Origin: Nostoc punctiforme PCC 73102
GTDB taxonomy: Bacteria; Cyanobacteriota; Cyanobacteriia; Cyanobacteriales; Nostocaceae
Reading direction: 5' to 3'
Assembly (NCBI RefSeq): GCF_000020025.1
Contig: NC_010628.1
Location: forward strand, 3,900,001 to 3,932,000
Length of the DNA: 32,000 bases
The position numbers and the translations under genes were made by a program. Shown in pieces: positions 1-26,533 of the stretch. Position 1 is the first letter of the stretch. Every line of letters begins with the position of its first letter. The notes beneath the pieces are model-generated. The model ran no database searches, was not told where the DNA came from, and was given only the letters and a program-made list of their open reading frames with translations.

Positions 1-1185
1 CACCATCTCAATGGCTTATTGGTAGGCCCAACGATGGTATCTTTAGCAATGGCTAATGTCTTTGAGCAAATCGATCCCAAAACGCACACACTTGACATTG
101 AGCAGTTAGCAGGTAATCAAAAACATTTACTTGAAGCTTTTGAAATCCTGGCCTTACAGGGCTGGGTTGTAATTCAAGGTCGTCAAGTTCAGTTCATCCG
201 TACAGGCTTATATGCGATTTCTAGAGCCTACGCTTACGGAGTCACAGTTTCTTATTTACCAACATTTGAGAAGGTTCCTGAACTGTTATTTGGCAATCCC
301 ACTATTTTATGGAGACGAGATACTGATGGACATGAAACCCATGTGAATCGTCCAGTAAATATTTGGGGTAGCGGACTAGCTCATCAGACCTACTTCCAGA
401 AAGTTGACGCGATTATTAGAGATATCTTTAACCGTCCGATTGACGAACAACCCAAAGGAATTGTAGATATGGGTTGTGGGGATGGTACATTCATGGAGCA
501 TATCTATCACGTCATTCAAAATCAGACTCTGAGAGGGAAATATCTCAATGATAATCCCTTGATTATGGTCTGTGCTGACTATAATCAAGCCTCTCGAGAA
601 GCTACTTACAAAAGACTCAAGGATTTGCAGTCGCCAATAAGCGTCATCTTTGGTGATATTAACGACCCAGACGAATTAGCAAAAACAATACTCGCCAAAT
701 ATGGAATACTATCTAACGAGTTTCTCCATGTCAGATCGTTTTTAGATCACAACCGTCCTTTTATCAGTCCCACAATGGGCAATATGGGCTGTGAATTGAG
801 TTCTACAGGAGCTTTTGTTTGTAGGGGTCGAATGATTATAGCAAATGAACTCTTACAAAATTTATTAGAGCATTTACAGCGTTGGAAACCACATATTGGG
901 CGATTTGGTTTGTTAGTCCTAGACTTACATACGATTCCGCCAGCCCTAGCAGCAGCAAATATTGGGTATACCTTAGCCACAGCTTATGATGCGACTCATG
1001 GTTATACCGATCAATATCCGATTGAATTGAATCAATTCATCGCTGCGGCAAAATTAGCTGGATTAACTCCCGATCTCCGCTACCAAGCCAAGTTTCCACC
1101 CAATGATTTGGCTACAGTTAGTCTCAATCTATTTGTGCCTATGGAAGTGGGGAGTGGTGAGTCCGATTCTGACTGGATTGTTTAA
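1..1185 (+). CDS. class I SAM-dependent methyltransferase, probably 5'-truncated by the window edge
   Basis: Frame 1 is open from nt 1 with no upstream stop. The first in-frame starts are TTG 19 and ATG 34. SAM-binding motif I 'IVDMGCGDGTF' lies at about nt 460-492. The N-terminal helical segment ('VSLAMANVFEQI...LEAFEILALQGWV') resembles the substrate/dimerisation region of small-molecule methyltransferases. Stop TAA 1183-1185. Substrate and O- versus C-/N-methylation cannot be read from the sequence. Confidence 0.7.
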   Translation, partial: HHLNGLLVGPTMVSLAMANVFEQIDPKTHTLDIEQLAGNQKHLLEAFEILALQGWVVIQGRQVQFIRTGLYAISRAYAYGVTVSYLPTFEKVPELLFGNPTILWRRDTDGHETHVNRPVNIWGSGLAHQTYFQKVDAIIRDIFNRPIDEQPKGIVDMGCGDGTFMEHIYHVIQNQTLRGKYLNDNPLIMVCADYNQASREATYKRLKDLQSPISVIFGDINDPDELAKTILAKYGILSNEFLHVRSFLDHNRPFISPTMGNMGCELSSTGAFVCRGRMIIANELLQNLLEHLQRWKPHIGRFGLLVLDLHTIPPALAAANIGYTLATAYDATHGYTDQYPIELNQFIAAAKLAGLTPDLRYQAKFPPNDLATVSLNLFVPMEVGSGESDSDWIV

Positions 1186-1336: not shown

Positions 1337-4300
1337 TCAAAAGCCTTACAAATAATGGATTCGCCGTTATCTTAGTGCCATTCCTCCAGAGGATACGAAG
1401 AGTTCATCAGGTCATACTGCAAAATCAAGTAGGTGGATTAGAGTTGTCTAATAACTTTAACGAAAAAGCGATCGCCATTATCGGGATGTCGGGACGTTTT
1501 CCCAAAGCAAACAACCTGGATGAATACTGGCAAAATCTCAAAAATGGGGTTGAATGTATTTCATTTCTGAGCGATGAGGAACTAGCGGCGGAAGGTGTAG
1601 ATGCTTCTACCCTTAACGATCCCAAGTATGTCAAAGCCATTCCGATGATTGACAATGTGGAATACTTCGATGCCGGATTCTTTAGCTATTCACCTAGAGA
1701 AGCCAAACTCATTGATCCTCAACATCGTGTATTTCTAGAGTGTGCTTGGGAAGCTCTAGAAGATGCTGGGTGCGACCCTGAGAACTATGAGCATCCTATC
1801 GGTTTTTACGCAGGAGCAAGTATTAATACTTACATTCTGGATTGTATTTTAGGCGATCGCTTGCGTCCTAAACTTGATTTTGAAAGCTTCTTGGAAACCT
1901 TCGTTGGTAGTGACAAAGACTTTCTCACCAGTCGCGTATCTTACAGATTAAATTTGAGAGGGCCTAGCGTCACAGTCCAAACGGCTTGTTCCACTTCCTT
2001 AGTTGCAGTACATTTAGCTTGTCAAGGCTTGTTGAATGGCGACTGCAATATGGCTTTAGCTGGAGCAATTTCCGTCAGAGTACCTCATCGTGCTGGTTAT
2101 TACTATCGTGGTGGTGGTATTGTTTCTCCTGATGGACATTGCCGCGCCTTTGATGCCGAGGCTGGGGGGACTGTTTTTGGTAGCGGTGGTGGAATTGTCG
2201 TTTTGAAGAAGTTAGCGAATGCTTTAGAAGATGGCGATCGCATTCACGCTATCATTCGGGCGACAGCAATTAACAATGATGGTGCCCTCAAAACTAGTTA
2301 CACTGCACCAGGGGTAATCGGACAGAAAAACGCCATCATTGATGCTCTATCCAAAGCTGGGATTAGTCCTGAAACCATCTCATATATCGAAGCTCACGGC
2401 ACCGGTACTCCCATTGGCGACCCCATCGAAATCGATGCCTTAACCCAGGCATTTCACACACAAACTCAAAAACAGGGATTTTGTGCGATCGGTTCGGTCA
2501 AGCCAAATATCGGTCATTTGGATGTAGCATCGGGTATGGCTGGACTAATCAAGCTGATTCTGGCTTTGAAACACCAGCAGATACCACCAAGTATTAACTT
2601 TAACCAACCAAATCCACACATTGACTTTGCCAGTAGTCCCTTTTACGTCAATACAAAACTCTCGCCTTGGCAAACCAATCAAATTCCCCGCCGCGCTGGA
2701 GTGACAGCCCTTGGGCTGGGAGGGACTAATGCCCATGCGATTCTTGAGGAAGCGCCAACTGGGAATGACGGCGATAAGGAAGATCAGGGTGATGGGTATT
2801 ATTTACTACCTTTGTCTGCGAGAAGTTCAGAAGCCTTAAAGTGTTTAGCAAAGTCCTATCAAGACTTTCTTAGCACTCGACCAGAAAGTCTACCAGACAT
2901 TTGCTACACTGCCAGCGTCCGCCGCAGTCATCATACTCATCGGCTGAGTTTGTTAGTCCGTTCCCGCGATGAACTATTGCAGTTACTAGAAACATACCTC
3001 CAGGGAGAACTACACTCACAGATTACAACGGGTATCCAAACTCCAGATCGTCAGCATCTACCGATTTTTATCTTCCCTGGACAAGGTTCTCAGTGGTTGG
3101 GTATGGGACGCAAGTTATTACAGCAAGAACCTGTATTTAAGGCTGCTATAGTTCAGTGTGATCAAGCTATCAATCAATATACAAATTGGTCATTGCTCGA
3201 ACAATTGATATTTGACGAGGCTGATTCACGTTTAGCAGAAATTGATGTTATCCAACCGACTTTATTTGCCGTTGAGATAGCCTTGGCAATGCTTTGGCAA
3301 TCATGGGGGATTAAACCTGCGGCTGTCGTCGGTCACAGCATGGGAGAAGTAGCAGCAGCTTATATCGCAGGTGCTTTAAACTTAGAAGATGCCGCCAAGA
3401 TTATCTGTAAGCGCAGCCAAGTAATTAAACGGGTTAGCGGTCAGGGTGCAATGGCTGTAGTTGGTTTATCTTTGGAACAAGCCCAAAAGGTGATAGTTGG
3501 CTATGAAAACTGCGTATCTGTAGCCGTGAGCAATGGCCCGATATCCACTGTTTTATCAGGCGATCCCAAGGCGATAGAAACTATTCTGGCGAATTTACAA
3601 GCCAAAAATATTTTTTGCCGCTTAGTGAAAGTAGATGTCGCTTCCCACAGTCCGCAAATGGAACCTTTACAAGAGGAACTGCGGCAACTTTTACAAGGAA
3701 TTCAACCTCAAGCAGCAACTATCCCCATCTATTCCACAGTCACAGGTAAATTAATTGATGGCTTGGATTTAGATACAACCTATTGGGTAAAGAATTTACG
3801 AGAGCCTGTATTGTTCTCGACGGCTATTCAAAGCTTGATAGGTGAAGGACATGAAGTTTTTCTCGAAATTAGCCCGCATCCAATTTTAACCACAGCCATT
3901 GAGCAAGGACTACAGTATAGCGATCGCCAAGGTGTTGTACTTCCTTCCCTGAAACGCAACGAAGATGAATTAGCTGTGATGCTCAATTCCCTTGGTGCGG
4001 TGTATACTGCGGGATATCCTGTAAATTGGCGCAAACTCTATCCCGACGGTGAAAACCACATTCAACTACCCACTTATCCCTGGCAACGTCAGCGATACTG
4101 GTTAGATAGAAAAATTGCCCGCAAAACACCACTTCCAGAAGAAACGAATAAATCTGCAATATCAGAAGAATGCACCGATTTGTTCTATGATCTAACTTGG
4201 CGGTTGAAACCACAACAAAATTCCACTAGTAAAAATAACCAAGATAGTTTGTGGTTGATTTTTAGCGATCGTCAAGGCTTAGGAACTGCCTTAGCATCCC

Positions 4301-6132
4301 AATTACAGGCGCAAGGTGCAACTTGTTACTTTGTGATACCTGGCAATAGTTACAGCGAATCTTCACAAGGACATTTCACAATCAATCCTACCGATCCCGA
4401 AGATTTGCAGCAACTAATCAAAGATGCAAAGGCAAGCAGTCAGCTACCTCTGCGGGGAATCGTGTATTTGTGGAGCCTGGATATTGCTTCTGCACAAGTC
4501 ACCGAAACATCCTTGCAAGATGCCGAAAAGTTACTCTGCGGTAGCGTGCTGCACTTGATTCAAGCCTTGGTGAAAAATCCCCCGTCAGACTGGCCGCATT
4601 TATGGTTAGTCACGCAAAACACCCAACCAGTCAAATCTTCCGTCAATTCTCAGGCGCTACCCCAATCACTTTTATGGGGACTGGGAAGGGTGATAGCACT
4701 GGAACACCCAGAATTGTGGGGTGGTTTAATTGACCTTGATAAAACCACCGCAGACCAAGCAGCCATCCTGTTGGCAGAAATCCAAACAGCCGACGGAGAG
4801 GATCAAGTTGCTTGGCGTGATGGTCAAAGATATGTTGCACGTCTCGTCACCAGTACCGTGCCAAAGGCATTGAAGCCGTTAACAGAATTTAATACCGATG
4901 GCACTTACTTAATCACAGGTGGTTTAGGAGGACTAGGTTTAAAACTGGCAGCTTGGTTAGTCGCCAAAGGTGCAAGACACCTAGTTCTCACAGGTAGACA
5001 AGGATTGCCAGAGCGTTCTTTATGGAATACCTTACCGCCAGATGACAAGCACAAAAAGGCAATTACAGCCATTCAAACATTAGAAGCTCAAGGTGCAACA
5101 GTTAAAGTTGTGCAAGCGGATGTCAGCAACTTTAGCCAGATGCAAGCTGTATTTGCCAGCAATACTCACTGGCGCGGCATCATCCATGCAGCTGGGATTT
5201 CTATCCCTCAAAACTTGGCAGAGATGAGTTTAAGCACATATCAAAATGTCTTAGCAGCCAAAGTTAGCGGTACTTGGATATTGCATCAGTTGACTCAAAA
5301 TCTCCAACTAGACTTTTTGATTTTGTTTTCCTCAGCCGCCGCCATCTGGGGTTCTAGCGGACTTGCGCCTTATGCGTCAGCAAACCACTTCTTGGATATT
5401 TTGGCTCATTATCGCCAAGGAAACAACTTACCAGTATTGAGTGTTAACTGGGGTAGTTGGGATGAGATAAACGTTGTTGCAGCTGAAGTCCAAAGCCTGT
5501 GGTCGCGTGTCGGGTTAAAACCGATGGCTGTCACACAAACCCTAGAAGCGTTGAAGTTATGTTTGCAATCAGGTGTAGTACAAAAAACAGTCGCAGATGT
5601 TGACTGGAGTATCTTTAAACCCACATTTGAAGTCAGACGACACAGACCGCTACTAGCAGAGTTGGGACAACCGCAGGAAAAACAAGAAAATAGCGCTGTA
5701 AGCAAGTCAGAGCTATTGTTGCAGCTAGAGAAGAGTTTAGCAGGCGATCGCCATAACTTACTCATCACTCATCTGCAAATGATAGTGAGTGAGATTTTGG
5801 ATCTAGACCCAGAAAATCCTCCCGAAAACCAGCAAGGATTTTTCCAAATGGGTATGGATTCTCTCATGTCTATCCAACTAAAAAATCGGCTAGAAGCAAG
5901 TTTAAACCATCCCCTACCTTCAACCCTCGCTTTTGATTATCCCAACATCGAAATGCTAGCTAACTATCTAACACAAGAAGTACTAGCTCCAATTTTCCGT
6001 CAACATCTTGAAACAACCCAAGATATATCTACACAGCCAACATCACAAAATCAAAGCAATAGCTTAGATGAGCTTTTCTTGCAAATAGAATCGCTTTCCG
6101 AAGACGCAGTAACACAGTTATTTTTGAACTAG
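1285..6132 (+). CDS. modular type I polyketide synthase, one module: KS-AT-KR-ACP
   Basis: KS: 'IAIIGMSGRFP', active-site Cys in 'TACSTSL' (codon 1987-1989), 'EAHGTGT', 'NIGH'. AT: 'GQGSQ', 'GHSMGE' (Ser codon 3337-3339), 'IDVIQP', 'VASH'. No DH between 'YPWQRQRYW' and the KR structural half. KR: 'TGGLGGLG' (about 4915-4938), 'AAIWGSSG...YASAN'. ACP: 'GMDSL' (Ser 5860-5862). The start is uncertain: nt 1285 is a GTG and this reading frame runs through the hairpin arm. In-frame alternatives are GTG 1375 and TTG 1444, the latter 13 codons before the conserved KS N-terminus. Confidence 0.93.
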   Translation: MRHLSLGSNTVPPTPPTLKSLTNNGFAVILVPFLQRIRRVHQVILQNQVGGLELSNNFNEKAIAIIGMSGRFPKANNLDEYWQNLKNGVECISFLSDEELAAEGVDASTLNDPKYVKAIPMIDNVEYFDAGFFSYSPREAKLIDPQHRVFLECAWEALEDAGCDPENYEHPIGFYAGASINTYILDCILGDRLRPKLDFESFLETFVGSDKDFLTSRVSYRLNLRGPSVTVQTACSTSLVAVHLACQGLLNGDCNMALAGAISVRVPHRAGYYYRGGGIVSPDGHCRAFDAEAGGTVFGSGGGIVVLKKLANALEDGDRIHAIIRATAINNDGALKTSYTAPGVIGQKNAIIDALSKAGISPETISYIEAHGTGTPIGDPIEIDALTQAFHTQTQKQGFCAIGSVKPNIGHLDVASGMAGLIKLILALKHQQIPPSINFNQPNPHIDFASSPFYVNTKLSPWQTNQIPRRAGVTALGLGGTNAHAILEEAPTGNDGDKEDQGDGYYLLPLSARSSEALKCLAKSYQDFLSTRPESLPDICYTASVRRSHHTHRLSLLVRSRDELLQLLETYLQGELHSQITTGIQTPDRQHLPIFIFPGQGSQWLGMGRKLLQQEPVFKAAIVQCDQAINQYTNWSLLEQLIFDEADSRLAEIDVIQPTLFAVEIALAMLWQSWGIKPAAVVGHSMGEVAAAYIAGALNLEDAAKIICKRSQVIKRVSGQGAMAVVGLSLEQAQKVIVGYENCVSVAVSNGPISTVLSGDPKAIETILANLQAKNIFCRLVKVDVASHSPQMEPLQEELRQLLQGIQPQAATIPIYSTVTGKLIDGLDLDTTYWVKNLREPVLFSTAIQSLIGEGHEVFLEISPHPILTTAIEQGLQYSDRQGVVLPSLKRNEDELAVMLNSLGAVYTAGYPVNWRKLYPDGENHIQLPTYPWQRQRYWLDRKIARKTPLPEETNKSAISEECTDLFYDLTWRLKPQQNSTSKNNQDSLWLIFSDRQGLGTALASQLQAQGATCYFVIPGNSYSESSQGHFTINPTDPEDLQQLIKDAKASSQLPLRGIVYLWSLDIASAQVTETSLQDAEKLLCGSVLHLIQALVKNPPSDWPHLWLVTQNTQPVKSSVNSQALPQSLLWGLGRVIALEHPELWGGLIDLDKTTADQAAILLAEIQTADGEDQVAWRDGQRYVARLVTSTVPKALKPLTEFNTDGTYLITGGLGGLGLKLAAWLVAKGARHLVLTGRQGLPERSLWNTLPPDDKHKKAITAIQTLEAQGATVKVVQADVSNFSQMQAVFASNTHWRGIIHAAGISIPQNLAEMSLSTYQNVLAAKVSGTWILHQLTQNLQLDFLILFSSAAAIWGSSGLAPYASANHFLDILAHYRQGNNLPVLSVNWGSWDEINVVAAEVQSLWSRVGLKPMAVTQTLEALKLCLQSGVVQKTVADVDWSIFKPTFEVRRHRPLLAELGQPQEKQENSAVSKSELLLQLEKSLAGDRHNLLITHLQMIVSEILDLDPENPPENQQGFFQMGMDSLMSIQLKNRLEASLNHPLPSTLAFDYPNIEMLANYLTQEVLAPIFRQHLETTQDISTQPTSQNQSNSLDELFLQIESLSEDAVTQLFLN

Positions 6133-6152: not shown

Positions 6153-6404
6153 ATGTCCATCATCTACACCGTTTTAGATAACATCTCTCAAATGTCAGGA
6201 ATCAAAAAAATACTAGCGATTCTCAGCACATTTTTTATTGTGTCAATTTTGATTACAGGTTTATACTTACTCTTTAGAACGTATAATGAAGTAGGCTTAA
6301 TTTCCATCATGTCAATTTACTTTATTTTGATGCCTCGTGATTCTTTTCTTGAGCGAAAAGAAATGAGAAAAATGGAAAAGCGAATGAATGTAGTCAAAGT
6401 CTAA
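6153..6404 (+). CDS. hypothetical small membrane protein (83 aa), doubtful
   Basis: ATG preceded by AGGAG ('caggagaataaagcaATG'). Two hydrophobic stretches ('ILAILSTFFIVSILITGLYLLF', 'GLISIMSIYFILM'). Very AT-rich, with no recognisable family. It could be a chance ORF in AT-rich spacer. Confidence 0.3.
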   Translation: MSIIYTVLDNISQMSGIKKILAILSTFFIVSILITGLYLLFRTYNEVGLISIMSIYFILMPRDSFLERKEMRKMEKRMNVVKV

Positions 6405-6626: not shown

Positions 6627-7394
6627 ATGACTGCTACCAAAGAACTTAACACCTGGATTTTTTCACCAAAACTAAATACAAAAGCTAAACTTCGCTTCTT
6701 TTGCTTTCCTTATGCTGGAGGTGGTACTTCATTATTTCGAGATTGGGTTAATGGCTTACCTTCAGATGTAGAAGTATGCCAAGTTCTGCTTCCAGGACAC
6801 GATACTCGCATCAAAGAAAAGCCATTTTCCCATCTCATTACCTTAATAGAAGCAATGGTTCCAGGGTTATTACCCTACCTGGATATGCCATTTGTTTTTT
6901 ATGGTCATAGCATGGGAGCATTGCTGTGTTTTGAAGCGGCTCGTCGCCTTAGCAAACAACATAATTTAGAACCCAGACATTTATTTGTTTCTGGTAGCCG
7001 CGCTCCACAAACTCCATGTTTTCTAAAACCCACACATCATTTACCAGGTAACTTATTTATCGATGAAATCAACAAGCGCTACAAAGCCATCCCCAAGGAG
7101 ATTTTAAATAACCAAGAAATCATGCAGTTATTTTTGCCAGTTCTTAAAGCAGACTTTTCAATAATTGAAACTTATGAATATACTCCTGACTTACCATTAA
7201 ATTGTTCCATTTCCGCCTTTGGTGGACTGCAAGACGAAATGGTAAATATAGAAGATATTGCTGCATGGCAAGACCAAACATCTGGAAGATTTACCTTGCA
7301 GATGATTGAGGGAGAGCATTTTTTCATCAATCATAAAAAACAAGAAATACTGAAAGCTATATCTGAGCAACTAGTAGAAACCTTAACAATTTAA
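6627..7394 (+). CDS. type II (editing) thioesterase, alpha/beta hydrolase
   Basis: 255 aa. 'FCFPYAGGG' N-terminal motif, nucleophile elbow 'GHSMGA', and C-terminal 'GEHFF' His region, all typical of free-standing PKS/NRPS TEII proteins. Confidence 0.9.
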   Translation: MTATKELNTWIFSPKLNTKAKLRFFCFPYAGGGTSLFRDWVNGLPSDVEVCQVLLPGHDTRIKEKPFSHLITLIEAMVPGLLPYLDMPFVFYGHSMGALLCFEAARRLSKQHNLEPRHLFVSGSRAPQTPCFLKPTHHLPGNLFIDEINKRYKAIPKEILNNQEIMQLFLPVLKADFSIIETYEYTPDLPLNCSISAFGGLQDEMVNIEDIAAWQDQTSGRFTLQMIEGEHFFINHKKQEILKAISEQLVETLTI

Positions 7395-7409
7395 TTCTCG
7401 GAGGTAGCT

Positions 7410-7640
7410 TTGGAAACCCTAACAGATATTTTTTCAGATGTATTAAACATCTCACCTTTAGAAATCACAGATCAACTCAGCCCCAATACTCTCAAAAATT
7501 GGAACAGTATGGCGCACATGAAGCTAGTAATGGCTATAGAAGAAGCCTACAATATAGTTTTCACAGTTGACGATGTGAAATCTGTAAAATCCTTCGCAGA
7601 CGCTCGCCAAATTCTACTTCAAAAAGGAGTCGAATCCTAA
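7410..7640 (+). CDS. free-standing acyl carrier protein (ACP-A)
   Basis: 76 aa. TTG start 5 nt after a strong GGAGG (7400-7404). Four-helix-size protein with candidate phosphopantetheine Ser in 'KNWNSMAHMKLVMAIEE' (Ser codon 7506-7508). This is a WDSxxH-type carrier motif with Asn in place of Asp. It sits 20 nt upstream of the E1alpha gene. Confidence 0.75.
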   Translation: METLTDIFSDVLNISPLEITDQLSPNTLKNWNSMAHMKLVMAIEEAYNIVFTVDDVKSVKSFADARQILLQKGVES

Positions 7641-7660
7641 CCTCTAAAATTACCTTCTGT

Positions 7661-8626
7661 GTGAGCTTTTTCTACACCCCAGCATCAGCCATGAAACTTG
7701 ATACCCTCCCCCCAATCCGAGAAACTCGAAAACTGACTCCAATTTCAGATGATGACTTAGCAATCATACTGATGATTCGCCACTTTGAATTATCACTTTT
7801 AGAGCTATTTTCTAGTGGTAAATTAAACGGTACAACCCATACTTGCCTCGGTCAAGAATACATCCCTGTAGCACTCAAGGCAGTTTTAACTGATAGTGAC
7901 TTTATCCTCAGCAATCATCGCGGACACGGCCATTACCTCGCAAGATTTGAAGATCCTGAAGGCTTGTTAGCAGAAATTATGGGTAAAGAAGGTGCAGTTT
8001 GTCATGGTGTGGGTGGAAGTCAGCACATCTACAGAAAAAATTATTTATCTACAGGAATTCAAGGCGAAAGTTTGCCTGTAGCTGCTGGGATAGCCTTGCA
8101 TTTACGCCGCCAAGGTAACTTTGGGATGGCTGTAGTTCACATTGGCGATGGTACTTGGGGTGAAGGAGGAGTTTACGAAGCCTTAAACATTGCCCAATTG
8201 TGGGGTTTACCTGTTTTAGTAATTGTAGAAAATAACAAAATAGCTCAGTCTACTCCTACTCAACTGCAAATGGCAGGCACAATTGCAGGTCGTGTTCAAG
8301 GTTTTGGAATTAATTATTTAAAAGTAGACTCAATAGATATTAACGAGATTAGGACACTGATTAGCTCTCACATTCAATCTGCTAGAACTAAATCTTTGCC
8401 CTTAGTAATTGAATTTGATACTAATCGAGTCGGCCCCCATAGTAAAGGTGACGATACACGAGATATTCAAGAACTAGAAAGAATTCAAAAATGGGATTGG
8501 TATTCAGTTTATCAACAGCAATATTCCGACCAATTTGAGCGGATAGAGCTAAAAGTTAAAACTGAAATAAGTAGCTTGATTAGAGATGTTGAATCTAGAG
8601 AATTAGTACAATGGAAACTACTCTAA
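7661..8626 (+). CDS. thiamine-diphosphate-dependent 2-oxoacid dehydrogenase E1 component, alpha subunit
   Basis: 'NHRGHGH' motif and TPP-binding 'GDGTWGEGGVYEALNIAQLWGLPVLVIVENN' (GDG...NN). The size fits E1alpha of PDH/BCKDH/acetoin dehydrogenase. Start is GTG 7661, or alternatively ATG 7691. Confidence 0.9.
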   Translation: MSFFYTPASAMKLDTLPPIRETRKLTPISDDDLAIILMIRHFELSLLELFSSGKLNGTTHTCLGQEYIPVALKAVLTDSDFILSNHRGHGHYLARFEDPEGLLAEIMGKEGAVCHGVGGSQHIYRKNYLSTGIQGESLPVAAGIALHLRRQGNFGMAVVHIGDGTWGEGGVYEALNIAQLWGLPVLVIVENNKIAQSTPTQLQMAGTIAGRVQGFGINYLKVDSIDINEIRTLISSHIQSARTKSLPLVIEFDTNRVGPHSKGDDTRDIQELERIQKWDWYSVYQQQYSDQFERIELKVKTEISSLIRDVESRELVQWKLL

Positions 8627-9642
8627 AAAGAACCGAGCGAGTTGTTGAGAACTTAAATCGTGCCCTACATCATATATTTGCTGTAGATCCTCAAGTTTTT
8701 TTAATTGGTGAAGATATCCTCGACCCCTATGGAGGAGCATTCAAAGTTGGTAAAGGATTATCTTCTAATTACCCAGATAGAGTTTTAACTACACCAATTA
8801 GCGAAGAAGCAATTGTGGGGATAGGTGGTGGTTTAGCTTTGTGTGGCAATAAACCTATTATCGAAATCATGTTTGGTGATTTCATTGCCTTGGGATTCGA
8901 TCAGATTTTAAATTTTGCTTCCAAATCTGTATCAATGTATGGCACAAAATTAGACTTAAATATGATTGTTCGCTGTGCAGTGGGTGGTAACAGAGGATAT
9001 GGCCCGACTCATAGCCAAAGTTTGCAAAAGCATTTTGTTGGTATTCCCAATTTATATTTATTTGAATTATCGCCATTGCATGATAATATTGCAGTGTTTG
9101 AAAAGTTGGTTAATTTAACTTTTCCCTGCATCTTTTTTGAAGATAAGGTACTCTATACTCAAAGAATTTATGCTGATGGATTGATTGACGATCTGTTTAG
9201 TTATGAATTTTTAGATTCTGCCAAGAATTTCGCTAGAATTTATGCCGATAGTTTTGAAGAAAATAACTGCTTGCTAATTTCACCAGGAGGATTAGTACCA
9301 AGATGTTTAGCTGCGGCGCGGGAATTATTTATTGATTGGGAAATTGAAACTCAGATTATTGTTCCCAGTCAACTATATCCTTTTGAATTAGAAACCATCA
9401 TCGATTTATTAGCAGATAGCACTCATATCTTTATTGTGGAAGATAGTGTAGCTGGCGGTACATGGGGGAGTGAAGTTGCTCATCAAATCTACAGTAGGCT
9501 TTGGGGTAAGTTAAAAAATCCTGTCAAATTGATTCACTCAAAAAATAGTATTATTCCTTCTTCTGCTCATTTAGAGAAGCAGGTGATTGTGCAGAAAGAA
9601 GATATTTGCAATTCTGTCAAGGAAGCCGTATTGTATGTATGA
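8611..9642 (+). CDS. 2-oxoacid dehydrogenase E1 component, beta subunit
   Basis: 'IGEDILDPYGGAFKVGKGL...RVLTTPISEEAIVGIGGGLAL...PIIEIMFGDFIALGFDQILNFASK' matches the transketolase-like pyrimidine-binding domain of E1beta. The start overlaps the E1alpha stop by 16 nt. Confidence 0.9.
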   Translation: METTLKRTERVVENLNRALHHIFAVDPQVFLIGEDILDPYGGAFKVGKGLSSNYPDRVLTTPISEEAIVGIGGGLALCGNKPIIEIMFGDFIALGFDQILNFASKSVSMYGTKLDLNMIVRCAVGGNRGYGPTHSQSLQKHFVGIPNLYLFELSPLHDNIAVFEKLVNLTFPCIFFEDKVLYTQRIYADGLIDDLFSYEFLDSAKNFARIYADSFEENNCLLISPGGLVPRCLAAARELFIDWEIETQIIVPSQLYPFELETIIDLLADSTHIFIVEDSVAGGTWGSEVAHQIYSRLWGKLKNPVKLIHSKNSIIPSSAHLEKQVIVQKEDICNSVKEAVLYV

Positions 9643-10738
9643 GATAATTCTGCCAAAATTTAATAATAATGATGAGAGCTATACGTTGTTATACTGGTTG
9701 TCTGATATAGGTAAGCCAGTAAATAAAGAAGAAGCGATCGCAATATTTGAAACGTCCAAAGCAGCTTTTGATTTAGAGAGTGAAGCAGAGGGTATTTTGC
9801 ATACCTTACCTGAAGCGGGTGATGAATGCAAACCTGGAGATGTCATTGGATATTTATTTGAAACTGAAGCAGAAAGACAAGATTTTCTCAATAGCTCAGG
9901 AAAGAAAGCAAAGATAACGAATGATAAATCTTTAACTATTACCAAGGTTGCTCAAGAATTAATTGATAAACATGGTATTTCTGAAGAAAATATCAGAAAA
10001 TTAGGTAAGAATATTATTAAAAGACCAGATATTGAAAAGTTAATTAGCGAACAGAGTCGAGATGAAGTTACTGGTTTAGAAATATCTCGCCAACAAATGG
10101 CGATCGCCCGCGTAGTCACCCAATCGCATACACAAATTCCCAAAGCATTTTTGTTGATGAAAATCTACGGTGATGCTGCAACTCAAATGTTAAGTGACTA
10201 TGGAAAAAAACATGATATTATTATCGGCTTACCAGAACTATTAATTAAAATCACAGCTACTTTACTATCAGAATTTCCGTTTTTCTTTGGTAGCTTAATT
10301 GATGACAATAGATTCATGCCTGGAGAAGTGGCTAATATCGGAGTTACCCTTGATTTAGGCAAAGGTTTATTTATTCCTGTAATTAAAAATGTCGGTGAAA
10401 TATCTCTAGCAGATATCGCCAATAAATTGATGGAATTCAGATTGAAAGCTATGCGCGGTCAGTTTAATGAAGAAGAATTGAATCAGGGAAATATTTCTCT
10501 TTCTATTAATATGGATAAAGATTCTCTAGTAACAATTCCGATCATTCTACCTTCTCAAAGTTGTATGTTATCTCTTGGAGGAATCCAAGAAGAACTTTAT
10601 TTAGGCTCTGAACAAAATGTCAAGAATCGTAGCTATATAAATTTAGGACTTGCTTACGACCACAGAGTTATTAATGGTCGAGAAGCTGCTCAATTTTTAA
10701 CTAAAATTAAGACTAAAGTTGAACAACCAAGTATATAA
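9635..10738 (+). CDS. lipoyl-domain dihydrolipoamide acyltransferase (E2)-like protein
   Basis: N-terminal lipoyl domain with 'ETSKA' (Lys codon 9758-9760). A peripheral-subunit-binding-like segment 'ITKVAQELIDKHGISEENIRKLG'. C-terminal 2-oxoacid dehydrogenase acyltransferase domain with catalytic 'AYDHRVINGREAAQFL' (His codon 10661-10663), where Asn replaces the Asp of the canonical DHRxxDG. The start was chosen at ATG 9635 (ATGTATGA overlap with the E1beta stop) rather than the track's 9587, because 'MYEIILPKF' is where lipoyl domains begin. Confidence 0.87.
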   Translation: MYEIILPKFNNNDESYTLLYWLSDIGKPVNKEEAIAIFETSKAAFDLESEAEGILHTLPEAGDECKPGDVIGYLFETEAERQDFLNSSGKKAKITNDKSLTITKVAQELIDKHGISEENIRKLGKNIIKRPDIEKLISEQSRDEVTGLEISRQQMAIARVVTQSHTQIPKAFLLMKIYGDAATQMLSDYGKKHDIIIGLPELLIKITATLLSEFPFFFGSLIDDNRFMPGEVANIGVTLDLGKGLFIPVIKNVGEISLADIANKLMEFRLKAMRGQFNEEELNQGNISLSINMDKDSLVTIPIILPSQSCMLSLGGIQEELYLGSEQNVKNRSYINLGLAYDHRVINGREAAQFLTKIKTKVEQPSI

Positions 10739-10815: not shown

Positions 10816-13800
10816 ATGGGTAAACTTCCAGAGCGCATCACGAATCTTTCAGCTACTAAACTAGCGCTCTTGGTACAACAAATGCGTGCCAAAACTGATG
10901 GAATCGAACTGTTAAACGCCGAACCTATTGCAATTATTGGTATGGGTTGCCGATTTCCTGGTGGAAGTGATAACCCTGAAGCATTTTGGCAGAATCTTCG
11001 TAATGGTGTTGACGCTATTAGCGAAATTCCGCCAGACCGTTGGGATGCAGACGCATATTATGACCCTAATCCTGATGCACCAGGCAAAATGTATTCCCGA
11101 TATGGTGGTTTTATTGGTCAAATCGACAAATTCGAGCCAGAATTTTTCGGTATCTCGCCACGGGAAGCGCAGAGTCTCGATCCCCAGCAACGGTTAATGT
11201 TGGAAGTCAGCTGGGAAGCGCTGGAAAATGCCGGGATTCCTCTGAATCAATTGCAGAGAAGTAAAACAGGCGTTTTTGTTGGTATTACCACCACAGATTA
11301 CCTGCAATTGCAGACTGGTCTTGCAGATGATGAACTGATAAATGCTTATACAAATTCTGGCGGAGCAATTAATTTTGCGGCTGGTAGATTATCTTATTTT
11401 TTAGGATTACAAGGGCCGAGTTTAGCTGTAGAAACCGCCTGTTCGTCATCTTTAGTAGCAGTTCATTTAGCTTGTCAAAGTCTGCGTAATCAAGAAAGTG
11501 ATTTGGCGATCGCAGCTGGTGTTAACCTAATTGTCATACCGGAGATGAACGTCAGGCTGTGTAAAGCCAAGATGATTGCCACTGACGGACGTTGCAAAAC
11601 CTTTGATAGCAGTGCGGATGGTTTTGGACGTTCTGAAGGTTGCGGTGTTTTGGTACTGAAACGCCTTTCCCAAGCATTAGCCGACGGTAACAACATCGTA
11701 GCTTTGATTCGCGGTTCGGCAGTCAATCAAGATGGTTCTAGCAGTGGTCTCACCGTACCCAACGGATTAGCACAACAAGCAGTAGTACGGCAAGCATTAG
11801 CCAACGCCGGACTAGAACCCCATCAAGTTAGCTATATCGAAACCCACGGTACTGGCACATCTTTGGGAGATCCGATTGAGGTAAATGCCTTGGGTGCAGT
11901 GTTTGGTAAAGAAAAAACAGCTAATCAACCCTTAATGTTAGGGTCTGTCAAAACCAATATTGGTCATACAGAGGCAGCAGCAGGCGTAGCTGGCATCATT
12001 AAAGTAGCTTTAGCGCTACAGCATCAAGAAATTCCACCACATCTGCATTTTCAAACACCCAACCCTCACATTGCTTGGCAGGATTTACCAGTTGCAGTTC
12101 CGACTAAGCTGACACCTTGGCTACCACACGAACAACGCCGCATTGCTGGGGTAAGTTCTTTTGGTGCAAGTGGGACAAATGCTCATATAGTATTGGAAGA
12201 AGCACCTGTGAAGAAAGTAGGGGGAGCAGGGGAGCAGGGGAGTAGAGGAGAAGAAATTACAGAGCGTCCTTTACATCTATTAACACTGTCAGCCAAACAT
12301 CCCCAAGCTCTGAGTGAAATTGCACAACGCTACATCAAATACTTTTCATCTCACCCAGATATACTTCTTGGCAACATCACCCACGCCTCACAAGTTGGCA
12401 GAACCCATTTCTCACATCGCCTTGCAATCATCGCCGCAGACAACGCACATATCCAACAACAGTTGCAAGCCTACCTCGACACCACCGAAGTCATCGGTAT
12501 CTATCACGGACAGGCTAGCCAGCAAACTAAAAAAATTGCTTTTCTCTTTACTGGACAAGGGTCACAGTATCGCCACATGGGTCGCCAACTTTACCAAACT
12601 CAGCCTAGTTTCCGTCAAACACTCGACGAATGCGATACCTTACTGCAACCTTTGTTAGGCGAATCAATTTTACAGGTGATATTCTCTGACAATTTAGAAG
12701 ATACTCGCCTCGATCAAACTGCCTACACTCAAGTTGCATTATTTGTTATAGAATACGCTCTTGCTCAACTTTGGTTGTCTTGGGGTATCCGTCCTCATGC
12801 TGTACTCGGTCACAGTGTCGGTGAGTATGTCGCTGCTTGCATTGCTGGTATTTTTTCCCTAGAAGACGCACTGAAATTAATTGTGCAACGTGCTGCTTTA
12901 ATGCAAGGACTACCTCAAGGTGGAGGAATGGCAGCAGTATTCACCACGGTAGAGCAAGTTACACCGTTAATTGCTGACTATCCACAACAGTTGAGTCTTG
13001 CCGCTATCAATGGCGAACACAGCATTGTCTTATCTGGGGAATTAGAGATACTCACAACAGTGCTGCAAAAATTAGAAAGTGAGGGTATTGAAACCAGAAG
13101 ATTGCAAGTATCCCATGCTTTTCACTCGCCCTTAATGCAGCCAATGCTGACAGAGTTTGCCAAAGTAGCAGCATCAGTAAAATATCAACAGCCGCAATTA
13201 GATATTATCTCCAATGTCACAGGTAAGATTGTCAGACATGAGGAAATGTCAAATGCGACTTACTGGGTAGAGCATATCCTCGCAAGTGTGCAATTTGCTG
13301 CCAGTATGCAGACATTGTATCAAGCACGATATGAGGTATTTATAGAAGTCGGTTCCCATCCGACATTGTTGGGAATGGCACGGCGCGAGTGTCCCGAACA
13401 CTTGGATATGGAAGGATTATGGCTGGCTTCGCTGCGTAAAGGTAGAGAAGATTGGCAGCAGTTGTTAGATTCCGTGGCACAGTTGTATGTGGCGGGAGTA
13501 GAGGTTGATTGGCGGCGTTTTGAGGCTGATTATCCGCGCTCTCAGGTAATTTTGCCGAATTATCCTTGGCAAATACAGCGTTATTGGGTGAGTGATGGCA
13601 AGAAAAAGCGATCGCCCCTGCAAAAACTATTACATCCCTTACTCGGTCAAAGATTGCGATCGCCCTTAGCTGACACAATTATCTTTGAGAGACAACTCAG
13701 CACAGCCGATGTGCCCTTCATTGACGATCACCGTATCTACGGTATGGTAGTAGTTCCCACAGTTGCCTACTTAGAGATGGCTTGGGCAGCTGCTACGGAA

Positions 13801-16440
13801 GTCATTGGTAAGGGTGTTTGTGTTTTAGAACAAGTTGCTATCCGCGAGGCATTCGTACTGGCAGAGGGTGAAACCCGCACTACACAATTACTTCTCACAC
13901 CAGACGACAAAGGATATACTTTCCAAATCTTCAGCTTGGCATCCCCGGAAAAAGAAGACGGAACCGCTTGGAATCTCCACGCATCTGGTAAGCTGCGAGT
14001 TGAGCCTATACCAGAACACCAAATCATTGCAGATTTCTCACCCACAGCACTACAAGAACGCAGTCTGCAAGAACTATCCGGTGGAGTGTTCTATCCTTGC
14101 TTACACAAACGCGGACTAGAATTTGGCTCTAGCTTTTTGGGTATAGAAACACTCTGGAAACTCCAGAACGAAGTGTTAGCAAAAATTCAAATGCCAGTAT
14201 CCATCATGGCAGAGGCGGGTAATTATAATATGCACCCAGCCCAATTTGATGCTTGCTTGCAGTTGTTTTTGGCTGACTTACCCAGTGAAGATGATGTGTT
14301 CATCCCCATTGGTTTAGATAAGTTGTGCTTTTACGGGCAACCCACGACTGAGTTGTGGTCATATATGCGTCTGCACATTGGTAATACACCCAACCCAGAA
14401 ACCTTTGATGTGGATGTCTGTATTGTAAATCCGGCTGGTGAGGTGGTAGCCCAAGTTGAGAAAATGCACCTCAAACGTGCGCCCAGAAAAGCTTTACAGC
14501 GCATTGCCCAGAAGAGTTTACATGATTGGCTGTATGAAATTAAATGGCAACCAAAAGTCCTACAGTCGCCTATCCAAGCTACTGTAACGGGGCATTGGCT
14601 GATCCTAGCTGACCACAGTGCGATCGCAGTAGAATTAGCCGAGTTCATAGAAAAATCTGGGCAAACTTGCAAGTTAGTCTTTGCCAGTCAGGAATACCAT
14701 CGTCAAGACTTTGAACAACTGTTCGAGAATTGTGCAAAAGATCAAGAATTGCGTGGTGTAATTTATCTGTGGGGAATAGATTCGACTTTAACAGATAAAA
14801 CTTCTGCCAGTTTCCCCGCTTTGCTTCAAGCTTTAGTCGCCGCAAAATTATCTCAGCAACCCAAGTTATGGTTAGTTACACGGGGTTGTGTACCTGTGGA
14901 GTTAAAACCAGGAGAATTGAGTATTGCCCAAACTCCTCTCTGGGGATTGGGAAGAACCCTAGCTGTAGAACACCCGGATTTGTGGGGAGGATTAATCGAT
15001 TTAGATCCAGGAACAAGCTTAGTCGAGCAAGCATCAAGTTTGCGGACTGAAATTAACCATCCAACTGAAGAACAAGTCGCTTTTCGGGCTGGACAACGCT
15101 ATGTACCTCGGTTGTTGCGCTATCAACCGTCATTCTCGGTAGAACCTCTAAAAATTAAATCTAACGCTACGTATTTAATTACGGGTTGTTTTGATGATAT
15201 TCACGTGAATCTTGCCAGTTGGCTAATTGAAAAAGGCGCTGAACATCTCGTGTTGATGGGAGAAGGAGAACCTGCACCAGAAATTTGCGATCGCCTCAAG
15301 CAAATGCACGCAATTAATCCAACTGTAGTATTATTTAACTTCAGTAGCTCCAAGTCAGAACAAGTCGCAAATGTTTTTCAATATATTGAAGACAAACTGC
15401 CAAGTCTATCTGGTATCATCCATACCGAAGGTATACACGAAGACAGCATACTTTTACATCAAACACGAGATGGGTTTGGTAGAGTCCTCGCAGCCAAGGT
15501 AACAGGAGCCTGGAATCTGCATATTCTCACTCAGGAAATCCCCTTAGACTTCTTTGTAATGTTTTCCTCAGCGTTATGCCTACTAGGTTCGCCTGGACAA
15601 GGTAATTACGCTGCGGCTAACGCTTTTGTTGATGCTTTAGCCCACTATCGTCAATCTCTGGGTTTACCTGCTCTGAGTGTTAACTGGGCACCTTGGGGGC
15701 ATCAAGATAATCCTATTGTCCGACGCTGGGCAACTTGGGGCGTAGATACAATTGATTGGCAACAAAGTTTGAAAATTTTAGAACAACTACTGACTGATAA
15801 TGTCGCGCAAGTTGCCGTCATGCCAGTGCAGTGGAGCAAGTTTACTCAAGCCTTTCCTAGAGGAAAAAAAGAGGCAGAGGGGCAGAGGGGATGGGGAGCA
15901 GAGGGGAAAGAAGATGGACTTTTGCCCACAAGGGAAGGGGCTTATAACGAAAATATTTTTTCTGCTCTGCTCGTCTATCCAGGATCTCTGCTTTCTTCTC
16001 AACCGAAATCTTCGCCAGCATCCCAGTTATACGAACGTTTAGAAAACGCTCCTCCCAGCAGACGCAAAGACTTAATATTTGAAGCCGTACAAGGGGAGGT
16101 TGCCAAAGTCTTGCGGATGAAATCAGCCCAGGTAGATGGGAAAAAGCCTTTTAACACAATGGGTATGGATTCTCTGACAGCAGTGGAACTGCGAAACGCC
16201 CTCATGGAATTGTTGAAAGTAACATTACCTGCAACCCTTGTCTTTGAATATCCCAGCCTAGAAAGCTTGTCTGAGTATTTAGCTGAGTTGGTGATTCTCA
16301 AAATCCCATCGTCCGCAACAAAGGAACTACCTACTGCTCCCAGCAAGATTAACTTGGCTGTAGAGCAAATGGAACAGTTTTCCGAAGATGAGCTAGAAGC
16401 CCTACTAGCTCAAGAACTGGCAACTCTTAATGAGTCATGA
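10816..16440 (+). CDS. modular type I polyketide synthase, one module: KS-AT-DH-KR*-ACP (KR cofactor site degenerate)
   Basis: N-terminal helical docking-like segment. KS Cys in 'ETACSSSL' (11440-11442), 'THGTGT', 'NIGH'. AT 'GQGSQ', 'TAYTQ', 'GHSVGE' (Ser 12814-12816), 'HAFH' (malonyl-type signature). DH 'HPLLG', 'DDHRIYGMVVVP' (His 13729-13731), 'HPAQFDACLQ'. KR region with 'TGCFDDIHVN' in place of TGGxGxxG. ACP 'GMDSL' (Ser 16171-16173). Acidic C-terminal helix 'FSEDELEALLAQEL'. Confidence 0.95.
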   Translation: MGKLPERITNLSATKLALLVQQMRAKTDGIELLNAEPIAIIGMGCRFPGGSDNPEAFWQNLRNGVDAISEIPPDRWDADAYYDPNPDAPGKMYSRYGGFIGQIDKFEPEFFGISPREAQSLDPQQRLMLEVSWEALENAGIPLNQLQRSKTGVFVGITTTDYLQLQTGLADDELINAYTNSGGAINFAAGRLSYFLGLQGPSLAVETACSSSLVAVHLACQSLRNQESDLAIAAGVNLIVIPEMNVRLCKAKMIATDGRCKTFDSSADGFGRSEGCGVLVLKRLSQALADGNNIVALIRGSAVNQDGSSSGLTVPNGLAQQAVVRQALANAGLEPHQVSYIETHGTGTSLGDPIEVNALGAVFGKEKTANQPLMLGSVKTNIGHTEAAAGVAGIIKVALALQHQEIPPHLHFQTPNPHIAWQDLPVAVPTKLTPWLPHEQRRIAGVSSFGASGTNAHIVLEEAPVKKVGGAGEQGSRGEEITERPLHLLTLSAKHPQALSEIAQRYIKYFSSHPDILLGNITHASQVGRTHFSHRLAIIAADNAHIQQQLQAYLDTTEVIGIYHGQASQQTKKIAFLFTGQGSQYRHMGRQLYQTQPSFRQTLDECDTLLQPLLGESILQVIFSDNLEDTRLDQTAYTQVALFVIEYALAQLWLSWGIRPHAVLGHSVGEYVAACIAGIFSLEDALKLIVQRAALMQGLPQGGGMAAVFTTVEQVTPLIADYPQQLSLAAINGEHSIVLSGELEILTTVLQKLESEGIETRRLQVSHAFHSPLMQPMLTEFAKVAASVKYQQPQLDIISNVTGKIVRHEEMSNATYWVEHILASVQFAASMQTLYQARYEVFIEVGSHPTLLGMARRECPEHLDMEGLWLASLRKGREDWQQLLDSVAQLYVAGVEVDWRRFEADYPRSQVILPNYPWQIQRYWVSDGKKKRSPLQKLLHPLLGQRLRSPLADTIIFERQLSTADVPFIDDHRIYGMVVVPTVAYLEMAWAAATEVIGKGVCVLEQVAIREAFVLAEGETRTTQLLLTPDDKGYTFQIFSLASPEKEDGTAWNLHASGKLRVEPIPEHQIIADFSPTALQERSLQELSGGVFYPCLHKRGLEFGSSFLGIETLWKLQNEVLAKIQMPVSIMAEAGNYNMHPAQFDACLQLFLADLPSEDDVFIPIGLDKLCFYGQPTTELWSYMRLHIGNTPNPETFDVDVCIVNPAGEVVAQVEKMHLKRAPRKALQRIAQKSLHDWLYEIKWQPKVLQSPIQATVTGHWLILADHSAIAVELAEFIEKSGQTCKLVFASQEYHRQDFEQLFENCAKDQELRGVIYLWGIDSTLTDKTSASFPALLQALVAAKLSQQPKLWLVTRGCVPVELKPGELSIAQTPLWGLGRTLAVEHPDLWGGLIDLDPGTSLVEQASSLRTEINHPTEEQVAFRAGQRYVPRLLRYQPSFSVEPLKIKSNATYLITGCFDDIHVNLASWLIEKGAEHLVLMGEGEPAPEICDRLKQMHAINPTVVLFNFSSSKSEQVANVFQYIEDKLPSLSGIIHTEGIHEDSILLHQTRDGFGRVLAAKVTGAWNLHILTQEIPLDFFVMFSSALCLLGSPGQGNYAAANAFVDALAHYRQSLGLPALSVNWAPWGHQDNPIVRRWATWGVDTIDWQQSLKILEQLLTDNVAQVAVMPVQWSKFTQAFPRGKKEAEGQRGWGAEGKEDGLLPTREGAYNENIFSALLVYPGSLLSSQPKSSPASQLYERLENAPPSRRKDLIFEAVQGEVAKVLRMKSAQVDGKKPFNTMGMDSLTAVELRNALMELLKVTLPATLVFEYPSLESLSEYLAELVILKIPSSATKELPTAPSKINLAVEQMEQFSEDELEALLAQELATLNES
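12221..12252 (+). repeat. in-frame 8-nt tandem array (GGGGAGCA x ~4) at the KS2/KS-AT-linker boundary
   Basis: Read directly: ggggagca ggggagca ggggagta gaggagaa. Encodes 'GGAGEQGSRGEE'. Followed by the conserved 'ITERPLHLLTLSAK'. Confidence 0.85.
15166..15700 (+). other. KR domain of PKS2 with a destroyed NADPH-binding signature (predicted inactive, KR0)
   Basis: Aligned by eye to the KRs of PKS1 and PKS3. 'TGGLGALG' becomes 'TGCFDDIH' (15181-15204), 'SRR' becomes 'GEG', 'ADV' becomes 'FNF', and 'HAAG' becomes 'HTEG'. The Lys ('AAKVTG'), Ser ('FSS') and Tyr ('NYAAAN') positions are retained. Confidence 0.7.
15871..15910 (+). repeat. in-frame 8-nt tandem array (GGGGCAGA-type x ~5) in the KR2-ACP2 linker
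   Basis: Read directly: gaggcaga ggggcaga ggggatgg ggagcaga ggggaaag. Encodes 'EAEGQRGWGAEGK'. Confidence 0.8.
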
Positions 16441-25398: not shown

Positions 25399-25463
25399 GC
25401 CTACAAATATAAAACTAGATTCTGACTCTCTTAATTACGAACTCCGAATTACAAATTAGTATT

Positions 25464-26210: not shown

Positions 26211-26269
26211 TAATAACAGTAGATTTTATCAGCGTTTAATTATTCTTTTTGGAGATTAGGAGAAAAATC

Positions 26270-26533
26270 ATGGTGCAACAAACAGTTGAGCAACAAGTCC
26301 TGAATGTAGTTACCAAACACATGCGCTTGAACATTGAAGGTTTAGAAAATGCAAACATCGATCCAACAAAGTCAATGCGCGATTTGGGTGCTACCAGTTT
26401 AGATGCAGTAGAGATTGCCTCAGCTTCGATGAGAGAGTTAAAAGTGAAAGTTCCTAGAACCAAACTCGGCAGTGTTAAGAACATTCAAGAACTTGTAGAC
26501 TTACTTGCTGAAATCAAAATACAGCAAGGGTGA
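26270..26533 (+). CDS. free-standing acyl carrier protein (ACP-B), HCS-cassette donor-ACP type
   Basis: ATG 26270 follows AGGAG (26259-26263); the track's TTG 26249 is less likely. 'DLGATSLDAVEI' (Ser codon 26396-26398) and 'KVKVPRTKLGSVKNIQELVDLL' resemble the 'LGxxSxxRAEI...KIPRxEL...KNIGEL' pattern I recall for AcpK/CurB-type donor ACPs. Confidence 0.8.
   Translation: MVQQTVEQQVLNVVTKHMRLNIEGLENANIDPTKSMRDLGATSLDAVEIASASMRELKVKVPRTKLGSVKNIQELVDLLAEIKIQQG

Follow-up and report, generated by a model that had tools for sequence, protein, structure and literature searches.

An E1/E2 set with its own carrier protein

The window analyzed here is a stretch of 32,000 nt from the genome of Nostoc punctiforme PCC 73102 (NC_010628.1, positions 3,900,001 to 3,932,000, forward strand); all coordinates given below are window positions. 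Between two genes of a modular polyketide synthase (PKS), it carries a set of four genes on the plus strand, which encode an acyl carrier protein (ACP-A, 76 aa, 7410-7640), a thiamine diphosphate (ThDP)-binding subunit E1alpha (311 aa, 7691-8626), the subunit E1beta (343 aa, 8611-9642), and a lipoyl-bearing acyltransferase E2 (367 aa, 9635-10738). A previous sequence-only reading of this window had described the four genes as co-directional and tightly coupled. Direct reading of the open reading frames (ORFs) confirms them at these positions, together with all motifs listed there, and both overlaps are read directly in the sequence: 16 nt between E1alpha and E1beta (8611/8626), and ATGTATGA between E1beta and E2 (9635-9642).

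ACP-A, a small ACP dedicated to the set, has a TTG start preceded by GGAGG and sits 50 nt upstream of E1alpha. It matches PF00550 with 24.3 bits (cut-off 20.8), while in NCBIfam only generic ACP models are hit, with at most 20 bits. Its phosphopantetheine site is Ser33 (nt 7506-7508) within NWNSMAH. E1alpha matches PF00676 with 166.6 bits and shows GDG (aa 152-154) as well as NN (aa 181-182). Its ORF reaches back to a GTG at 7661, but the start is most likely the ATG at 7691, where the orthologues are called. E1beta is composed of a pyrimidine-binding domain and a C-terminal domain of the transketolase type (PF02779 and PF02780).

For E2, Pfam, alignments, and an AlphaFold2 model (pLDDT 85.5) consistently point to a lipoyl domain (23.0 bits; Lys42, nt 9758-9760, in ETSKA), a segment resembling a peripheral-subunit binding domain (PSBD), and a catalytic acyltransferase domain (128.7 bits; His343, nt 10661-10663, in DHRVING). 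In a fold search, solved E2 cores fit the modeled catalytic domain with a root-mean-square deviation of approximately 2 A. The PSBD-like segment, at about aa 100-135 (9930-10040), had already been suspected from the sequence and holds up: it can be aligned with canonical PSBDs, and two short helices in a helix-loop-helix arrangement are predicted for it. Despite this alignment, the segment is diverged, and Pfam PF02817 has no match in E2.

A gene for a type II thioesterase (6627-7394, plus strand; PF00975, 145.8 bits) ends 15 nt upstream of ACP-A. In all cyanobacterial loci, it immediately precedes the ACP gene, and its product is a probable editing enzyme for the carrier. The set is flanked by two PKS genes on the same strand, PKS1 (1444-6132; KS-AT-KR-ACP by Pfam domains), the proposed acceptor of a starter bound to ACP-A, and PKS2 (10816-16440; KS-AT-DH-KR-ACP), which carries an N-terminal docking-type helix and encodes the module next after PKS1. 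PKS1 probably starts at the TTG at 1444, which gives 1562 aa as in its orthologues and is preferred over a GTG at 1285.

Assignment to an assembly-line-associated clade

When 5.8 billion proteins were searched with E2, about 100 clusters were obtained at scores of 194-767 bits, with lengths of 293-429 aa and all without PF02817. Beyond this clade, the scores fall to 124 bits or less, the level of canonical E2. ETSK42A and DH343RVING do not vary in an alignment of E2 sequences. A scan of a genome collection with an E2 profile, which delivered mostly canonical E2, contained at least 13 clade loci; among the matches listed, there was no named producer of naphthyridinomycin (Nap), quinocarcin (Qnc), or scleric acid (Scl).

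We compared the surroundings of 17 distinct clade loci with those of 67 canonical E2 loci, considering a neighborhood of 10 kb. C, A, or KS domains were found at 16 of the 17 clade loci. None of the 67 canonical loci has a C or KS domain, and five of them match an adenylate-forming enzyme alone. At two loci, in Rhizomonospora (L011, 3-6188) and Luedemannella (L019, 652-6441), the set adjoins a single nonribosomal peptide synthetase (NRPS) of the type C-A-PCP-TE, resembling the logic of scleric acid; the raw frame of this NRPS runs on into the ORF of an MFS transporter.

Six actinobacterial loci (L012-L017) show the order E1alpha, a 75-aa ACP, and a fused E1beta::E2 of 714-794 aa (tightest ORFs), the architecture known from Nap; we refer to them as Nap-type loci. 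E1alpha of the window is 48-57% identical to the proteins of clade loci across Actinobacteria and Paenibacillus, and 51-57% identical to those of the fused Nap-type loci, but only 27-35% identical to canonical ones. The corresponding values for E1beta are 47-54% to the clade, 47-51% to the Nap-type architecture, and 27-29% to canonical proteins (35% in one fragmentary alignment). The canonical E1 comparison set included BCKDH-type operons. Scores obtained with phmmer separate the two groups for each subunit, with 318-397 bits in the clade versus 80-149 in canonical proteins for E1alpha, 341-418 versus 99-124 for E1beta, and 149-276 versus 41-81 for E2. In a neighbor-joining tree of E1alpha and E1beta, the clade is recovered in 100% of 200 bootstraps, on a long stem and with short internal branches, and the cyanobacterial proteins are sister to those of Paenibacillus in 82% of the replicates.

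The best Pfam and NCBIfam matches of the set are models of the pyruvate dehydrogenase (PDH) type, but the NCBIfam equivalog cut-offs for PDH and 2-oxoglutarate dehydrogenase (OGDH) are missed at least twofold by E1alpha (184.8 versus 393.85), E1beta (146.7 versus 321), and E2 (137 versus 378.65). A housekeeping PDH, BCKDH, or other 2-oxoacid dehydrogenase is ruled out by these scores, the identities, and the tree. Judged by sequence, E1alpha, E1beta, E2, and ACP-A are all to be placed in one small clade associated with assembly lines. The label "PDH-like" given by the sequence-only reading is correct for fold and motifs; it understates the divergence, since E1 is of the type published as two-component transketolase.

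Divergence is also visible around the active site. Among the residues that are conserved in the Nap-type loci yet rare in canonical E1, E1alpha of the window has 52 of 75 and E1beta 58 of 94. They include GGSQH, GIQG, GDGTWGEG, NNKIAQS, and GPHS in E1alpha, and THSQ, K140, H141, and G144 in E1beta. Several of these clade-specific changes adjoin invariant cofactor or catalytic residues and lead from hydrophobic to polar, e.g., from Met to Gln or from Val to Gln. In E1alpha, GGSMH is changed to GGSQH, GIVG to GIQG, and GDGA to GDGTW; in E1beta, QHSQ is changed to THSQ, and a new Lys-His pair appears. Such changes may be tied to a hydroxylated substrate. No solved structure of a clade member was found, the best PDB matches being canonical E1 with about 120 bits.

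These observations bear on the nature of the acyl group, for which acetyl, branched-chain acyl, and glycolyl had all been considered. Since the E1 belongs to the published two-component transketolase type, glycolyl is likelier than acetyl or a branched-chain acyl group. From clade membership and the common active-site changes, we moderately favor glycolyl, and this is the least certain element of our interpretation. Alternatively, the set could be a variant 2-oxoacid dehydrogenase that produces a plain acyl starter on ACP-A, with pyruvate giving acetyl or 2-oxoisovalerate giving isobutyryl. The PDH-type models among the best matches speak for this alternative, and in other systems, 2-oxoacids have been proposed as the source of carrier-bound groups (PMC5384830). 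Given the missed equivalog cut-offs, the low identity even to BCKDH-type E1, and the clade-wide polar replacements beside the catalytic motifs, we regard a plain acyl starter as unlikely.

The carrier protein carries a signature of its own. The motif W-x-S-[LM]-x-H of ACP-A is common to 12 of 12 ACPs encoded next to E1alpha at other loci (with Trp at position -2 in all 12 and His at +3 in 11), and it replaces the usual G-x-D-S-L in the ACPs of Paenibacillus, Streptomyces malaysiensis, and all six Nap-type loci. By this motif, ACP-A is classed as a carrier of the NapC/QncM/SclQ1 type. This is in good agreement with its published homologues, which likewise comprise 76 aa (PMC6335953, PMC7570522). 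Clade placement and ACP signature together support what had been suggested from the sequence, namely a PDH-like E1/E2 pair that passes an acyl group to its own ACP for use by the assembly line and is related to the Qnc, Nap, and Etu proteins. In Kutzneria sp. CA-103260 (L005, 6577-7668), a thioesterase fused to a carrier domain of the GGYSL type lies directly beside E1alpha. Because this locus has the fusion and no W-x-S-type ACP, both the acceptor carrier and the editing thioesterase vary within the family.

It is also conceivable that the set merely enlarges the acyl-CoA pool by transfer from E2 to coenzyme A (CoA), as is the case for bkd genes in certain PKS clusters of actinobacteria, and that ACP-A has an unrelated role. 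In fold and in its catalytic His/Asp motif, E2 indeed corresponds to CoA-dependent E2 cores. However, in most clade loci, the E1/E2 genes have a family-specific ACP next to or among them, the published homologues load an ACP, and one match in the database search is an ACP-E2 fusion (P0101). Thus, a contribution to the CoA pool alone seems very improbable.

Every split-type E2 has the PSBD-like segment, while it is missing from all six fused E1beta::E2 proteins. This distribution suggests that the segment tethers E1 rather than dihydrolipoamide dehydrogenase (E3) and became dispensable after fusion. As noted by the sequence-only reading, no E3 homologue is encoded in the window. The absence is real, but it is not a peculiarity of Nostoc: 20 clade loci likewise showed no E3 homologue at a distance of up to 10 kb from the set, and lack of E3 is normal for this family (see also PMC5384830).

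The proposed starter of PKS1 and competing roles of the set

The same cluster with the same gene order is present in Nostoc sp. C057, N. calcicola FACHB-389, and a metagenome-assembled genome (MAG) of Trichormus. Gene order is also kept in a metagenomic cyanobacterium whose E2 is just 58% identical, and Nostoc sp. C110 carries the downstream half of the cluster (PKS3 to PKS6). All six PKS proteins seen, PKS1 to PKS6, begin with a KS domain, and no conventional loading module was found in approximately 50 kb of the orthologous cluster. A loading module upstream of the methyltransferase gene, the first gene of the cluster, was looked for in two orthologous genomes and is absent from both.

The KS of PKS1 keeps its Cys-His-His residues and is preceded by only 8 residues, with no docking region or helix. 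PKS2 and PKS3, by contrast, have N-terminal coiled-coil regions of about 35 residues. We compared the KS region of PKS1 (1444-2800) with those beside the E1/E2 set in S. malaysiensis (L010, 15801-20873) and Kutzneria (L005, 250-3279). It is 47-49% identical to these (354-386 bits), whereas identity to the five remaining KS domains of the Nostoc cluster is only 39-42% (300-331 bits). Moreover, the module beside the set in S. malaysiensis is likewise KS-AT-KR-ACP. This may point to a KS subtype that moves together with the E1/E2 set. The recurrence of a PKS1-type KS beside the set across phyla is the best evidence we have that ACP-A feeds PKS1. Taken together with the docking-less PKS1 and the absence of a loader in the 50 kb, it lends support to the first hypothesis of the sequence-only reading, according to which ACP-A is the loading carrier for PKS1.

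We therefore consider it probable, on the basis of these comparisons, that the set is a split-gene platform of the NapB/C/D, QncN/M/L, and SclQ1-4 type, which provides glycolyl-S-ACP-A to start the PKS1 chain. In the mechanism we propose, E1alpha-beta with ThDP would cleave a C2 unit off a ketose phosphate (or hydroxypyruvate) to form dihydroxyethyl-ThDP, and the unit would be moved oxidatively to the lipoyl group on Lys42 of E2, giving glycolyl-S-lipoyl. The PSBD-like segment would keep E1 tethered to E2 meanwhile. The acyltransferase domain of E2, with His343, would then pass the glycolyl group to the phosphopantetheine on Ser33 of ACP-A instead of CoA; this transfer is expected from homology to the published systems. 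We further infer that PKS1 is the acceptor: its docking-less KS would take glycolyl-S-ACP-A as starter, followed by one extension and ketoreduction. The dihydrolipoyl arm would be re-oxidized by a housekeeping E3 borrowed from primary metabolism, and the adjacent type II thioesterase would clear mis-acylated carrier.

Several points weigh against this interpretation. The Nap-type loci are proxies recognized by gene architecture and protein sizes, not by the sequences of NapB/NapD, QncN/QncL, or SclQ. The Kutzneria locus shows that the W-x-S-type acceptor is not universal in the family. Priming of carriers with 2-oxoacid-derived groups has precedents in pepteridine (PMC5384830) and in the work of Craig and Brady 2011, as cited therein. 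The end of the cluster lies beyond the 50 kb seen, and a loading module further downstream is possible; in addition, the order of PKS genes may differ from the order of modules. Finally, the beta-branching cassette of the cluster has no decarboxylating KS, which gives room for a rival in which the set serves as acetyl donor.

This cassette (23372-26533, plus strand) is composed of HCS (23372-24598), ECH1, ECH2, and a second carrier protein, ACP-B, as recognized by Pfam and NCBIfam. It is preceded by PKS3 (KS-AT-KR-ACP-KS-AT, plus strand; C-terminus at 20949-23384), which lies between PKS2 and the cassette. According to the second hypothesis of the sequence-only reading, the set would convert pyruvate to acetyl-S-ACP-A and thus supply the acetyl donor for HCS in place of the missing malonyl-ACP decarboxylase (KS-DC). 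No KS-DC is present in the window, neither by motif nor by model: none of the six KS domains has the replacement of Cys by Ser or Gln that is typical of KS-DC, and none exceeds 134 bits with the PksF-type model (cut-off 445). Furthermore, PKS3 ends with a KS and a degenerate AT without ACP, and ACP-B could thus be acceptor rather than donor. In this terminal AT, GHSxG is changed to GGGVG, and about 60 residues are deleted.

However, it is ACP-B within the cassette, not ACP-A, that matches NF005502/PRK07117 (56 bits, its best NCBIfam match, versus at most 29 bits for generic ACP models). ECH1 and ECH2 match PRK07112 and PRK07110, respectively. We take PRK07117 to be the model of the donor ACP AcpK, and all three models presumably stem from the beta-branching genes of the B. 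subtilis pksX cluster. Outside the cyanobacteria, HCS was not found beside the set in any locus. In addition, E1 falls into the transketolase-type clade and not with PDH E1, and the set is located 12.6 kb upstream of HCS, adjoining PKS1. Acetyl supply to HCS is thus disfavored, and we judge it improbable. The Trp residue known as beta-branching flag is uninformative here, since none of the ACPs of the window carries it.

The first gene of the window (1-1185, plus strand, open from base 1) encodes an AprA-related S-adenosylmethionine (SAM) methyltransferase with the domains AprA_N, WH_AprA, and Methyltransf_36 (PF23525, 345 bits). The upstream methyltransferase invoked by the sequence-only reading thus exists, with the correction that the window edge cuts its gene and leaves the 3' two-thirds. 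Its orthologues comprise 584-591 aa and have no carrier domain (L087, L088, L091, L092). In two orthologous genomes, it is the first cluster gene, separated by a 1-kb gap from opposite-strand and partly non-conserved genes upstream. Its link to the E1/E2 set is one of position alone. The methyltransferase could act on the unit bound to ACP-A, or on the malonyl or beta-ketoacyl form of PKS1, which has no C-MT domain of its own. The AT of PKS1 (3300-3700) shows GHSMG and VASH, versus GHSVG and HAFH in the AT of PKS2 and the second AT of PKS4. The first extender may consequently be something other than plain malonyl, perhaps in connection with the methyltransferase.

The plain acyl starter discussed above has an extension at this point, as the methyltransferase might turn isobutyryl toward a t-butyl (pivaloyl) starter. 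The position of an AprA-related enzyme as first gene of the cluster fits this route. Its family is very large, however (4006 matches at E <1e-10), the listed members being standalone proteins of about 545 aa from several phyla, and its next relative, with 52% identity, sits at another PKS cluster without visible E1/E2. Moreover, AprA MT2 presumably needs a decarboxylating dimethylmalonyl substrate and not isobutyryl-ACP, which counts against the pivaloyl route.

The remaining features of the window concern the cluster as a whole. PKS4 (plus strand) is its last PKS gene in the window; the first module, KS(HGVGT)-AT(GYSLG)-ACP(GMKSL), spans 26582-29650, and the gene continues beyond the 3' end. 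An ORF of 83 aa with two hydrophobic segments (6153-6404, plus strand) follows PKS1. It has no Pfam match and is conserved in the other cyanobacterial clusters compared, i.e., L001, L088, and the divergent L003. G+C content at third codon positions is 0.24-0.29 in the genes of the thioesterase, E1alpha, E1beta, and E2, versus 0.35-0.41 in those of the methyltransferase, PKS1-4, HCS, and ECH1, and this island (6627-10738) is consistent with insertion of a block between PKS genes. No plus-strand terminator separating genes was found in the window, and the set as an operon of its own, with internal promoter or terminator, was rejected because consensus scans reached only background level. A paper on the PKS clusters of N. 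punctiforme assigned nostoclide and nostovalerolactone to another cluster of this strain and left the remaining ones orphan. Both compounds are ruled out as product of the present cluster, given that their pks1 cluster is loaded through FAAL and ACAD and lacks a set of this kind.

Relation to published systems and significance

The closest published counterparts are found in the biosynthesis of naphthyridinomycin, quinocarcin, and dnacin (Din). NapB, NapC, and NapD were described as two-component transketolases that move a hydroxyethyl unit from xylulose-5-phosphate to an ACP, and the dnacin cluster encodes their homologues DinU (306 aa), DinT (76 aa), and DinS (754 aa), respectively (PMC7570522). 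Peng et al. 2012, as cited in PMC6335953 and PMC7570522, attributed the formation of glycolicacyl-S-ACP to a two-component transketolase and an ACP. These systems and the Nostoc set have in common a ThDP-dependent E1alpha, an E1beta, a lipoyl-E2, and a 76-aa ACP, encoded in an assembly-line cluster without E3, and the W-x-S-L-x-H motif of the Nap-type ACPs is shared by ACP-A. They differ in that E1beta is fused to E2 and the PSBD-like segment is missing, whereas in Nostoc both proteins are separate and the segment is kept. Furthermore, their acceptor is an NRPS; in the cyanobacterial host, it is likely the KS of a cis-AT PKS.

With respect to gene organization, SclQ1-4 of the scleric acid producer Streptomyces sclerotialus is more similar. 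These proteins, homologous to QncM, QncN, and QncL, are encoded by separate genes, and the glycolic acid unit of scleric acid was attributed to them from product structure and homology (PMC6335953). In both cases, the order is ACP, E1alpha, E1beta, E2, with 76, 305, 338, and 386 aa in S. sclerotialus versus 76, 311, 343, and 367 aa in Nostoc. The likeness is one of order and size, and the SclQ partner is an NRPS, unlike the Nostoc PKS.

Direct priming of a carrier domain by a PDH-like E1 and E2 is also described for pepteridine biosynthesis in Photorhabdus (plu2796-2798), with an E3 proposed to be borrowed from primary metabolism (PMC5384830). There, unlike in Nostoc, T and C domains form one protein with E2, and 2-oxoacids are the proposed source of the acyl groups (PMC5384830). 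With canonical PDH, BCKDH, and acetoin dehydrogenase, the Nostoc set shares the folds, GDG...NN, the Glu of E1beta, the lipoyl-Lys, DHRxxxG, and the chemistry up to acyl-lipoyl. It departs from them in its identity of 27-35%, the missed equivalog cut-offs, and a PSBD unseen by Pfam, as well as in having an ACP as acceptor, no E3, and a location in secondary metabolism. FkbH-type systems, which supply glyceryl-ACP or (hydroxy/methoxy)malonyl-ACP, resemble it in that a hydroxylated short acyl unit from central sugar metabolism is bound to an ACP for use by a PKS. Their enzymes are unrelated, as they rely on a HAD-type phosphatase/transferase and use neither ThDP nor a lipoyl group.

The Nostoc set is an added member of a published enzyme family, and we did not find it described as starter supply of a cyanobacterial cis-AT PKS. 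Likewise, literature searches on glycolyl-ACP, on a PKS starter from this platform, and on a cyanobacterial example gave no match. We tentatively propose, as a possibility somewhat short of an even prospect, the first cis-AT PKS primed by a transketolase-type E1/lipoyl-E2/ACP platform with a glycolyl starter from sugar phosphate, in a cyanobacterium, where an iron-type methyltransferase may alkylate this unit or the first extender.

If this is true, a rare way of priming carriers, as found for tetrahydroisoquinoline antibiotics and scleric acid, would reach polyketide starters and cyanobacteria. The set, together with a dedicated KS-AT-KR-ACP module in both Nostoc and S. malaysiensis, would then represent a portable glycolyl loading cassette. 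The presence or absence of the PSBD-like segment hints at how E1 is held in minimal E1/E2 complexes. Annotation pipelines now label such genes as pyruvate or 2-oxoglutarate dehydrogenase, and W-x-S-[LM]-x-H in the ACP, ETSKA in E2, and GGSQH, GIQG, and GDGTW in E1alpha can serve as signatures for their annotation. For the genetically tractable symbiont N. punctiforme, an orphan PKS cluster would gain a function, and its chain would be predicted to begin with a hydroxymethyl terminus, which aids structure prediction and the mass-spectrometry-guided discovery of its product.

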